From NCBI RefSeq assembly GCF_044225925.1, contig NZ_JBGAHY010000020.1: a stretch of DNA of 64,000 nt. One strand, given 5' to 3'. Source of the stretch: Allosphingosinicella sp. (lineage in GTDB: Bacteria; Pseudomonadota; Alphaproteobacteria; Sphingomonadales; Sphingomonadaceae). Below are positions 52,027 to 53,549 of the stretch, one piece after another. The notes under the pieces were generated by a model. It was not told the origin of the DNA. It searched no databases and saw nothing but the letters and a program-made list of their open reading frames with translations. Made by a program: the position numbers and the translations under genes. Every line of letters starts with the position of its first letter. Position 1 is the stretch's first letter.

Positions 52027-52959
52027 CTAGTTCGGTTCTCCGGCCGCACGGGCGGGCGCGATGACCACGGGCCGCCAGGTTATGCCGCGCCGGTCCAACT
52101 CCCGCGCGGAGCTTTCAACGCCGCTTAGCGCAGCCTGTCGCCACCAGCGCACAGCCTCGGCCTCGTCGCGCGCCAGGCCGCCGCGTCCCTCGGCATACAT
52201 GAAGCCAAGCCCGTGCATTCCCGTGGAATTCCCGAGTGCCGCCGATTGCCTGTACAGGCGGAGTGCTTCCACATCGTTGCGCGGGACGCCGCGTCCTGCG
52301 ACATACATGTTGCCGAGGGCGGCCATTGCCATGTCGTGGCCTGCCAGCGCTGCGCGCCGGTACCAACGCACCGCCTCCGCGTCGTCGCGCGGCCCGCCAA
52401 GCCCCTGCGCGAACATCAGGCCGAGATGATACATGGCGTTGATATGCCCCGCCGTGGCCGCCCGCCGCATCCAGCGCCGGTCCTCCTCCGTCTGCAAACC
52501 GGCAAGCCTGAACTGTGCCCGGGCGTCACCCGCTTCGGCAGCCTGGCGATTCCATGCCGCCGCACGCGCGCTGTCCTGCGGCGCGCCGTGGGTGCCGCTG
52601 AGATGATTCCAGCCAAGCAGAAATTGCGCGCGACGGCTCCCGGATTGGGCCAGCGCCTCGAGATCGGAGAATGTGCCAAGCCGCAATATTCGGTCGGCGC
52701 CGTCAAAGCGGGCGTCGTCCCAGCGCTGCCACTGTGCTTCCGGCACCGAAGCCAGGGCGTCCCGCATGCGAGCGGCGCCGGGCGGCAAGGTCTGTCGCGG
52801 TGCCGGCGGCGTCGGCTGCGGCCGCTGGCAGCTAGGCAGCACGCGCCCCGACCGTCGCGCGGCGTCGCAAGCGCGGGGGCTGGGAGTCTGGGCCGGCGCA
52901 GGCATTGAGACCAGCATGGCGGCACAGCCGAACAGGCATGAAGCGAGGATCAGTTTCAT
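52027..52959 (-). CDS. Sel1-repeat (TPR-like) secreted protein
   Basis: Start re-picked at MKLILASCLFGCAAMLVSMPAPA (signal peptide). Repeated AxxWxRxAAxxGHxxAMxxLGxMY units. The ATG overlaps the OmpA-like stop (ATGA). Confidence 0.8.
   Translation of the reverse strand: MKLILASCLFGCAAMLVSMPAPAQTPSPRACDAARRSGRVLPSCQRPQPTPPAPRQTLPPGAARMRDALASVPEAQWQRWDDARFDGADRILRLGTFSDLEALAQSGSRRAQFLLGWNHLSGTHGAPQDSARAAAWNRQAAEAGDARAQFRLAGLQTEEDRRWMRRAATAGHINAMYHLGLMFAQGLGGPRDDAEAVRWYRRAALAGHDMAMAALGNMYVAGRGVPRNDVEALRLYRQSAALGNSTGMHGLGFMYAEGRGGLARDEAEAVRWWRQAALSGVESSARELDRRGITWRPVVIAPARAAGEPN
52846..52890 (-). repeat. 45-nt module encoding QTPSPRACDAARRSG (copy in the Sel1 gene)
   Basis: Residues 24-38, immediately after the predicted signal peptide. 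Near-identical to 53436-53480. Confidence 0.8.
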
Positions 52960-53549
52960 CTTGCTGACTCGCGCCGGACAAAGGCGATTTCCGCGCGCCG
53001 GTTCCTCGCCCACACGGATTCGTCATTGCCGGTGGCTGCGGGACGGGTCCCGCCATAGGCGCGAACGGCAATGGCGCGTGCCGGCACGCCATGGGCGACG
53101 AGATAGTCGCGCACACTGGCGGCAACGCGGCGGCTGAGGGCCATATTGTAGGCGGCGGTGCCGCGATCGTCCGTGTGGCCGGAGACCACAATCCCGACAT
53201 TGTTGTCGCCCAGCTGCCGCCAGGCGGTAACGGCCTCATCCAGCGCCGCCGTGGCCTCCGGCCTGATGCGGGCGCTGTCGAAGTCGAAATAGATGGTGAT
53301 GAGGCCAGGCATGCCGGGGACTGCCACCGCCGGCTCTGCCGGCACAGCCACACGCGGAGACGTCCTCGGTCGCGTTGGCGGCGTCACCGGAGAGGGGGTT
53401 GGGCGCACCCGCCGCGCGCACCCTGCCAGCGGATGCCCGGACCGCCGCGCCGCGTCGCAGGCGCGGGGGCTGGGGGTCTGGGCGGCAACCGTCGCGCCGA
53501 AGCCGGCAAACGCAGCGAGCAGGAGCGTCAGGCGAAGAAAGAACCTCAC
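52956..53549 (-). CDS. OmpA_C-like peptidoglycan-binding protein, secreted
   Basis: GTG at 53549 with GGAGG upstream. Signal peptide VRFFLRLTLLLAAFAGFGATVAA. IYFDFDSARIRPEA...SGHTDDRGTAAYNMALSRRVAASV...NRRAEI. Confidence 0.8.
   Translation of the reverse strand: MRFFLRLTLLLAAFAGFGATVAAQTPSPRACDAARRSGHPLAGCARRVRPTPSPVTPPTRPRTSPRVAVPAEPAVAVPGMPGLITIYFDFDSARIRPEATAALDEAVTAWRQLGDNNVGIVVSGHTDDRGTAAYNMALSRRVAASVRDYLVAHGVPARAIAVRAYGGTRPAATGNDESVWARNRRAEIAFVRRESAR
53436..53480 (-). repeat. 45-nt module encoding QTPSPRACDAARRSG (copy in the OmpA-like gene)
   Basis: Residues 24-38 after the signal peptide. It differs from 52846-52890 at 5 positions, all synonymous third positions. Confidence 0.8.

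Follow-up and report, generated by a model that had tools for sequence, protein, structure and literature searches.

A 21-residue peptide with two cysteines, here called the Cys-loop tag, forms the predicted mature N-terminus of two unrelated periplasmic proteins, one OmpA-like and one with Sel1 repeats, that are encoded in a 64,000-nt stretch of DNA from Allosphingosinicella sp. (contig NZ_JBGAHY010000020.1 of assembly GCF_044225925.1; hereafter the window). The tag is conserved and under selection, lies directly behind the signal-peptide cleavage site and is restricted to gene cassettes that encode a membrane receptor with a TIR domain, which in the window is fused to a Ser/Thr kinase. Its position at the predicted mature N-terminus of unrelated bodies, and only in cassettes whose receptor carries a periplasmic barrel, led us to what we regard as the most economical reading, though an evenly poised one: the tag would dock its cargo proteins onto the lipocalin-like barrel of the receptor. 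The tag and the mini-barrel ectodomain are two unnamed families that annotation pipelines have overlooked. In the window, the cassette consists of three consecutive minus-strand genes: the open reading frame (ORF) of the TIR–kinase receptor comes first, then the OmpA-like gene and the Sel1 gene, joined head to tail by 4-nt overlaps (GTGA and ATGA).

An earlier note on this DNA had described an identical 15-residue cysteine-containing module at both mature N-termini, and we found it as described: positions 52846-52890 and 53436-53480 both translate to QTPSPRACDAARRSG, each directly after a 23-residue signal peptide. The similarity runs on to the second cysteine (HPLAGC versus RVLPSC), which lies 12 residues past the first in both proteins, as had been stated, giving a unit of 21 residues. 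The rest of the two proteins is unrelated, and neither the signal peptides nor the bodies flanking the tags could be aligned. The two 45-nt copies differ at 5 of 45 nucleotides, all of them third positions and all synonymous; by the Nei-Gojobori method (13 synonymous and 32 non-synonymous sites), the proportion of synonymous differences (pS) is 0.385 and that of non-synonymous differences (pN) is 0, and the probability that five random differences would all be synonymous is about 0.001-0.002. In an alignment of OmpA-like proteins, the tag is 95-100% conserved on bodies that are only 61-64% identical in the distant pair, with unrelated signal peptides in front. The paralogous copies and this conservation on diverged bodies together argue, in agreement with the earlier note, that the peptide itself is the target of purifying selection.

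The consensus of the mature chains after cleavage is Q-x-P-S-P-R-A-C-D-A-A-R-R-x-G-x-x-L-x-x-C. Signal peptides were recognized by a positively charged n-region, a hydrophobic core of 10-20 residues and small residues at positions −3 and −1 about 20-30 residues from the start. By inspection, a signal peptidase I-type site precedes the tag in all tagged proteins (APA/Q, VAA/Q, AAA/Q, ASA/Q, ALA/Q, AGA/A, VHA/Q and others). Because this canonical small-x-small site lies just upstream, the tag should survive signal-peptide removal and stay on the mature protein, as predicted by the −3/−1 rule alone; removal of the module with the signal peptide, an outcome that the earlier note had considered, is not what the rule predicts. 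We considered whether the first cysteine might be a non-canonical lipobox cysteine (PRA-C-D) of lipoproteins with an unusually long c-region. The alanine at −1, the aspartate after the cysteine and the cargo types, which are often lipoproteins, would suit this explanation, but Arg or His at −2, Pro at −3, the location of the cysteine 7-8 polar residues past the hydrophobic core and past the canonical AXA site, and the conservation of a second cysteine at fixed spacing make it extremely improbable. The same genome also has ordinary lipoboxes, for example LGAC in the gene at 59883-60386, and the lipobox rule ([LVI][ASTVI][GAS]C after the core, uncharged) does not describe P-R-A-C, with Arg at −2 and 7 polar residues between it and the AXA site.

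The spacing C-x12-C is found in 11 of the 12 short-loop tags and is C-x13-C in the twelfth (locus L062), and the tag is probably a short basic helix closed by a disulfide that this spacing and the periplasmic location make probable. AlphaFold modelling of the window OmpA-like protein from a 5-sequence alignment (mean pLDDT, the predicted local distance difference test, 70) placed a helix at residues 28-37 (PRACDAARRS, local value ~74), then an unstructured segment (44-57) and then the OmpA_C fold, a predicted layout in keeping with a self-contained N-terminal element that is flexibly tethered. In no tagged protein were residues 24-44 matched by an NCBIfam or Pfam model, nor does PADLOC have a model for the tag. 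The two invariant cysteines, the predicted autonomous helix and the occurrence of a cytochrome c among the tagged bodies would also be compatible with an intramolecular or regulatory part of the cargo, such as a redox-sensitive cap or pro-peptide, acting with no partner in trans. We regard this as improbable: the same tag sits on structurally unrelated bodies, which is hard to square with a body-specific role, and the AlphaFold model, itself of low confidence, shows no packing of the tag on the OmpA domain.

In a six-frame scan of the 3.08-Mb assembly, [ST]P[SW]PRAC occurred at just these two sites, and a generalized tag pattern with signal-peptide context returned only the same two ORFs. The genome of locus L018, which belongs to the genus of the window as judged from an identical list of relatives, had one tag match, adjoining a receptor, and this was the one real match to the strict tag pattern among 185,579 species genomes. 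Further strict-pattern matches, six in genome contigs and eight in metagenome contigs, were rejected as out-of-frame or non-coding chance occurrences. A word-seeded protein search with the first 60 residues as query returned five clusters, three of them OmpA-like (P0002, P0004 and P0005), one a Cys-rich Sel1-like protein (P0003) and one a 310-aa protein of no known domain (P0006), and the mature chains of all five begin Q[TAS]PSPRACDAARR[SQ]G..L..C. Among proteins longer than 345 aa, a word search detected no carrier of the tag, which is weak evidence. OmpA-like orthologues with a conserved tag carry four unrelated signal peptides, and near-identical OmpA bodies among the cluster members carry three different ones. 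The search of the proteome and of relatives that the earlier note had suggested thus located the tag in two ORFs of the window genome and, unchanged or as variants, at receptor loci in relatives, on bodies as unrelated as cytochrome c, OmpA_C, Sel1, TPR and beta-helix domains and four proteins with no Pfam match. A recent local duplication, which the earlier note had weighed, is not by itself the explanation of the shared module, the tag being conserved in other operons.

The intact form of the receptor was revealed by a related contig, L026, which was found with a degenerate DNA pattern for PSPRACDAARR over public collections and is syntenic with the window at 96-98.6% identity. In the L026 receptor, one frame spans the kinase, a Pro/Ala linker, a transmembrane (TM) helix and a C-terminal domain of 81 residues (AAPDRSWAAGRWCVDGN...NLRRCG), and the RRCG-stop at its end is shared with the window ORF. 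The window differs from it by about 10 indels within about 400 nt (53546-53965, minus strand; net −15 nt), and its receptor ORF remains open despite them, with the TM helix and the domain shifted into other frames; elsewhere, the alignment extends over 2,300 nt without a gap. At the indel sites, the L026 states are carried by contigs of four other metagenome runs, all from different studies, and the indel-rich tail of the window was found on no contig of four runs, coverage of the window-type strain being missing at that stretch. The receptor tail of the window is either strain-specific decay or a local assembly error. Profile matches to the barrel remain in the window at 53655-53786 and 53563-53625.

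The earlier note had also reported a related motif in this tail, PRAC with a cysteine 14 residues on, in the OmpA reading frame, and had read it as a possible tag on a third protein. The motif exists as reported, and the OmpA frame is indeed a real coding frame just downstream of it, where it encodes the start of the receptor barrel; it is not a third tag. In intact relatives, the true frame gives TPGPAPV here; PRAC arises only if one reads the downstream frame back over a 1-nt deletion. Its 'second Cys' is the conserved cysteine of the GRWC motif of the receptor domain, and the six-frame translation of this 67% G+C genome contains 288 occurrences of PRAC and 74 of PRAC-x10-16-C, so the match is a chance frame artefact.

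When 1.84 billion representatives were searched in full by HMMER, the 81-residue domain had 24 matches, of which the convincing ones are C-terminal in TIR-TM (280 aa), TIR-coiled-coil-TM (427-464 aa) and TIR-kinase-TM (705-753 aa) proteins. Invariant in the domain are two tryptophans and a C-terminal cysteine, with a second cysteine either right after the second tryptophan or about 6 residues on. AlphaFold modelling from a 15-sequence alignment predicted eight strands with pLDDT 95. In VIA-align comparisons, the closest structures were the C-domain of 2qmi (Z 9.8, root-mean-square deviation 2.3 over 77 residues) and 1ei5 (Z 8.0), and further neighbours at Z of about 6-8 were fatty-acid-binding proteins, lipocalins, avidins, staphostatin, PliC and NlpE; sequence identity to the fold neighbours is 5-18%, and Z of 6-10 denotes fold-level similarity only. 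Foldseek gave weak matches (best E-value 5.6e-3). G-R-W is conserved in the barrel, and lipocalins are recognized by an 8-stranded antiparallel up-and-down barrel with a GxW-type first-strand motif. The ~80-residue periplasmic C-terminus of the receptor is predicted to be an unnamed 8-stranded lipocalin-like barrel, a resemblance at the level of the fold, and none of Pfam, NCBIfam and PADLOC contains a model of it. Searching 400 genomes at class level for the barrel gave only spurious weak matches (L030-L032), and a family-level sample added one genome.

Small exported proteins resembling the barrel were seen as well. At 59448-59870 and 59883-60386 (minus strand), the window encodes two small exported paralogues with weak Lipocalin_4 matches, the latter a lipoprotein with the ordinary lipobox LGAC mentioned above; they share with the receptor barrel a FLIGxW..DC start and a C-terminal cysteine (hhalign probability 76% over 30 columns) and are probably, by these motifs, free-standing members of the mini-barrel superfamily. 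Small lipoprotein-like ORFs at L057:1573-2058 and at L064 (G914:C156) end in ...MTRCQ or ...FSRCQ, like the barrel; one of them precedes the L057 receptor by a few kb.

We then related tag and receptor across all 156 species genomes of the genus by scanning them with the barrel profile, which matched at 17 places in 11 genomes. Eight of the 17 are TIR or TIR-kinase receptors, and behind every one of the eight the product of the next gene, which starts at the receptor stop, has a signal peptide, then an N-terminus with a Cys loop, and a Pro/Arg linker; two weak matches are small exported proteins. With the window and L026, this makes ten loci (window, L026, L018 and L056-L062) in which a tagged gene stands at or overlaps the stop of a barrel-bearing receptor. 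At L018, a 275-aa TIR-TM-barrel protein comes first and a tagged TPR protein (QSPSPRACDAARRQGITLPNC) next, their genes overlapping by ATGA; at L056, two tagged genes stand in tandem (ADVRACEAARMAGIYPPGC and QDSRACQAARQAGRYPPGC). The tags behind the other genus receptors are QPSPRACDTARRQGVALPGC, QSARHCATERALGRYPPGC, TSARDCSLARSAGRPVPSDC, QGHACEVLRSQPTRQAEYRRRC, QGMACDVLRDQ...C and QTSLLACD...C, and the cargo domains at genus receptors are Sel1 (11 repeats), OmpA_C, Sel1 with another domain, a beta-helix and four with no Pfam match. The idea of the earlier note that the peptide links its carriers to the kinase thereby gains strong comparative support from the eight genus loci, L026 and the window; its supposition that the kinase bears a copy of its own falls away, and docking stays a predicted interaction.

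These cassettes occupy different neighbourhoods and have no other gene in common, which bears on a further explanation: the tag might be a sorting or anchoring signal with another reader, be it peptidoglycan, an outer-membrane component or a Dsb-type thiol relay, and the receptor a co-inherited neighbour. The layout of tag plus linker resembles a tether, lipid anchors are frequent elsewhere on proteins of the cargo types (OmpA_C/Pal-like, TPR/Sel1, cytochrome c), the best NCBIfam matches of the cargo are the lipoproteins Pal, NlpI, AlgK and ExtS (all below cut-off), and in the window the tagged genes look selected though the barrel looks broken. We nonetheless consider another reader unlikely, given that the tag tracks the receptor cassette rather than any widespread machinery (145 of the 156 genus genomes are without it, as judged by the barrel), that the strict tag occurs once among the species genomes and that no extra conserved gene accompanies the scattered cassettes.

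One chromosomal site has held more than one such cassette. In the window, the three genes are flanked by purS and purQ upstream and marR-emrA-emrB downstream. At the same purS-purQ/marR-emrA site, L057 (G839:C25) has a receptor with a long coiled-coil insert, another barrel subtype, another tag and an unrelated cargo. Between the window and L057, receptor identity is 66% over TIR and kinase but only 22% over the barrels, and tag and cargo differ; judged from these gene orders, the site is a fixed locus holding a variable cassette. The periplasmic parts of the receptor diverge faster than the cytoplasmic parts. Large proteins with the barrel were also noted: those of L043, L046, L047, L048, L050, L055 and L066:3578-6541 are ~980 aa long, with a TM helix, a large periplasmic region, a C-terminal barrel and no tagged gene downstream, and an ORF upstream of the L066 protein (2604-3767) has a TIR-like FFSYSH motif.

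Comparison with L026 further indicated how the window array arose. In L026, the kinase gene is followed by three tagged genes in tandem, encoding a class I cytochrome c (with a Pfam Cytochrom_C match), the OmpA-like protein and the Sel1 protein, and all four genes overlap by 4 nt. The L026 OmpA-like gene has its own signal peptide, whereas the OmpA gene of the window carries that of the L026 cytochrome c. The cytochrome c and OmpA tags of L026 share an identical 41-nt tract, the window junction lies within it, and two BLAST high-scoring segment pairs overlap there. From the borrowed signal peptide and the junction inside the identical tract, we infer that the window OmpA gene is a chimera produced by a ~600-nt deletion through recombination between tag repeats, with loss of the cytochrome c gene. 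One contig (X1, record 2), possibly from the source sample of the window itself, spans the chimeric junction with 0 differences, and in another (X3) the same signal peptide and tag continue into cytochrome c sequence, which indicates that the three-gene form is present in an independent sample. Between window and L026, pS is 0.03-0.05 and pN ~0.005 over the OmpA, Sel1 and kinase parts (0.033 and 0.006 for the Sel1 gene). A single X2 contig (depth 6.6, shorter side 40 nt) joins window position 52905 to 53417, skipping 511 nt, whereas the two tags in register lie 590 nt apart; a differently arranged relative or a repeat artefact may account for this contig.

The tag repeats do act as DNA homology patches, as the window deletion and the signal-peptide swaps indicate, a real effect that is secondary to the peptide. 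A protein in an ENA metagenome (P0034), from the cluster of the window OmpA-like protein, joins the same OmpA body to yet another unrelated signal peptide, the third, and has a mosaic tag whose second half, RVLTGC, matches the cytochrome c-type tag, implying repeated recombination inside tags. The three signal peptides and the mosaic tag on one OmpA body, together with the 41-nt identity in L026 and the window deletion junction within it, could be taken to mean that the tag is kept mainly as a patch for gene conversion and cassette shuffling among tandem genes, its peptide being incidental. We hold this to be very improbable: the Sel1 and OmpA tags show 5 synonymous and 0 non-synonymous differences, dN about equal to dS was not observed between species, and the divergent tags of other species keep the Cys spacing and the Arg and Gly positions though their DNA has changed. 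Since the tag is conserved despite changed DNA, recombination is a consequence of the repeats and does not explain their conservation.

Under the docking reading, cleavage by signal peptidase I would yield a mature protein beginning with the 21-residue tag, which a disordered linker, rich in Pro and Arg and 20-60 residues long, would connect to a periplasmic domain of any kind, for example OmpA_C, Sel1, TPR or cytochrome c. The cassette would have two parts, a receptor gene and, behind it, one to three translationally coupled tagged genes. The receptor would be a single-pass inner-membrane protein with a cytoplasmic N-terminal TIR domain, or TIR plus Hanks kinase, and a periplasmic barrel with a conserved Cys pair of its own. 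The tag may dock into or onto this barrel, possibly aided by disulfide chemistry. The receptor would then hold a peptidoglycan-binding, scaffold or redox cargo in place and could pass information on the state of that cargo to the cytoplasmic TIR/kinase. In this scheme, the physical docking, the disulfide and the signalling are predicted steps.

Several points weigh against this reading. Six of the barrel places in the genus are ~980-aa proteins with a C-terminal barrel and no tagged neighbour, so the barrel need not always have a tagged partner. All context loci come from one genus and its close metagenomic relatives, and the association of tag and receptor could partly reflect common descent of one cassette. 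Pairing of subtypes is only a hint: receptors with RWG...C barrels (L057, L060 and L061) go with long-loop tags and RWC and RWS types with C-x12/13-C tags, in about 10 pairs that are non-independent. The window barrel is scrambled, yet both tagged genes show a non-synonymous to synonymous rate ratio (dN/dS) of ~0.1-0.2 against L026; should the indels be genuine, such ratios agree poorly with a strict need for the receptor. Cleavage of the signal peptide and the disulfide are predicted from rules, and docking is predicted from comparative context.

A bolder proposal, which we consider tentative and rather doubtful, is that the cassettes constitute an unrecognized trans-envelope surveillance system in which periplasmic sensor or scaffold proteins (the peptidoglycan-binding OmpA_C, Sel1/TPR, cytochrome c) would plug their disulfide-loop tags into the barrel, and changes in docking, triggered for example by cell-wall damage or phage attack, would switch on the TIR NADase and/or the kinase. 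A role of the receptor in envelope surveillance or defence is an attractive possibility by analogy, in view of its TIR and Hanks-kinase outputs and its generic similarity to defence kinases and TIR proteins. PADLOC matched no defence system to the cassette and gave only generic similarity to kinases (PD-T4-6, mad6) and TIR proteins, with no match for the Sel1 protein and only MotB-like similarity to ZorB for the OmpA protein. Should the proposal hold, the receptor would correspond in bacteria to the ligand-gated receptors of the Toll/IRAK type, its ectodomain diversifying together with the tag.

The coordinates of the window features are collected in Table 1. All three proteins score above their Pfam thresholds: the receptor with TIR_2 (PF13676; 55 bits against a gathering threshold of 28) and Pkinase (PF00069; 115.5 against 31.7), the OmpA-like protein with OmpA_C (PF00691; E=1.5e-21, 76.9 bits against 27.2, residues 87-184), next to a Pal-like NCBIfam match below cut-off, and the Sel1 protein with Sel1 (PF08238; E=1.4e-32, 111.4 bits against 30.7, four repeats). 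The NCBI/UniRef call for the window contig (P0032) starts the OmpA-like gene at Met80, giving 118 aa and dropping signal peptide, tag and linker; with such a start, annotation pipelines overlook the tag.

Table 1. Features of the tagged-protein cassette in the window, with positions counted from its first nucleotide.
Feature	Position	Strand	Remarks
TIR + Ser/Thr kinase receptor ORF	53546..55534	−	662 aa as it stands; Pfam TIR_2 59-174, Pkinase 246-496
OmpA_C (Pal-like) periplasmic protein, tagged cargo 1	52956..53549	−	197 aa; GTG start inside GTGA
Sel1-repeat periplasmic protein, tagged cargo 2	52027..52959	−	310 aa; ATGA overlap with OmpA-like gene
Sel1 signal peptide, 23 aa, APA before Q	52891..52959	−	from translation; cleavage predicted by −3/−1 rule
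Cys-loop tag of Sel1 protein, QTPSPRACDAARRSGRVLPSC, 21 aa	52828..52890	−	identical in L026
Pro/Arg-rich linker after Sel1 tag	52771..52827	−	from translation
OmpA-like signal peptide, 23 aa, VAA before Q	53481..53549	−	identical to L026 cytochrome c signal peptide
Cys-loop tag of OmpA-like protein, QTPSPRACDAARRSGHPLAGC, 21 aa	53418..53480	−	helix 28-37 predicted by AlphaFold, pLDDT ~74
Pro-rich linker, tag to OmpA_C domain	53298..53417	−	pLDDT 44-57, no predicted secondary structure
Crossover tract, 41 nt	53446..53486	−	identical in L026 cytochrome c and OmpA tag copies; junction of ~600-nt deletion inside
Receptor transmembrane helix, LWLGARLTAPVALVAVALMV	53872..53931	−	out of frame in window, in frame in L026
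Remnant of receptor periplasmic lipocalin-like barrel	53549..53792	−	split over three frames by indels
PRAC motif of earlier note	53793..53804	−	chance frame-artefact match, no tag

Bacterial TIR proteins are mostly known as cytoplasmic immune effectors. A TIR family with an extracytoplasmic sensor and tagged partners would permit a direct test of how envelope events reach TIR signalling, and docking of the tag to the barrel, if it occurs, would be a new and easily recognized way of coupling periplasmic proteins to cytoplasmic TIR/kinase output. In the literature searched, we found no description of TIR receptors with lipocalin-like ectodomains, nor of the tag. The window array also illustrates, clearly and in nature, that short repeats within coding sequence can drive the fusion and deletion of tandem genes and the exchange of their signal peptides.

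We class the system as a tag-partner cassette, whose parts are not combined in any described system. Short tags on exported proteins that are co-encoded with a partner are known from PEP-CTERM/exosortase, GlyGly-CTERM/rhombosortase, dockerin/cohesin and the CsgA N22 segment with CsgG. Like these, the Cys-loop tag is a short conserved peptide on unrelated secreted proteins, phyletically tied to a partner gene and joined by a flexible linker; unlike them, it is N-terminal, at mature position +1, and forms a two-Cys loop, and its candidate partner is a TIR/kinase signalling receptor rather than a sortase or secretion pore. In its order of N-terminal Cys motif, disordered linker and OmpA_C, TPR or Sel1 domain, a tagged protein resembles the tethered lipoproteins Pal, NlpI and AlgK, from which it differs in the Arg at −2, the distance from the hydrophobic h-region, the upstream AXA site and the second invariant cysteine.

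The receptor, for its part, is similar to PknB-PASTA receptor kinases and bacterial TIR defence proteins (ThsB, PD-T4-6 or MADS kinases) in being single-pass with a cytoplasmic Hanks kinase and/or TIR domain. It departs from PknB-PASTA in its predicted mini lipocalin-like ectodomain, in the fusion of TIR and kinase and in its dedicated tagged periplasmic partners, and no known defence system matches the architecture of the cassette. The predicted ectodomain is akin to the calycin barrels of streptavidin, staphostatin, PliC and the NlpE N-domain, 8-stranded up-and-down barrels of 80-120 residues. Some calycin barrels bind constrained peptides or partner proteins at their open end, as streptavidin does with disulfide-constrained peptides.

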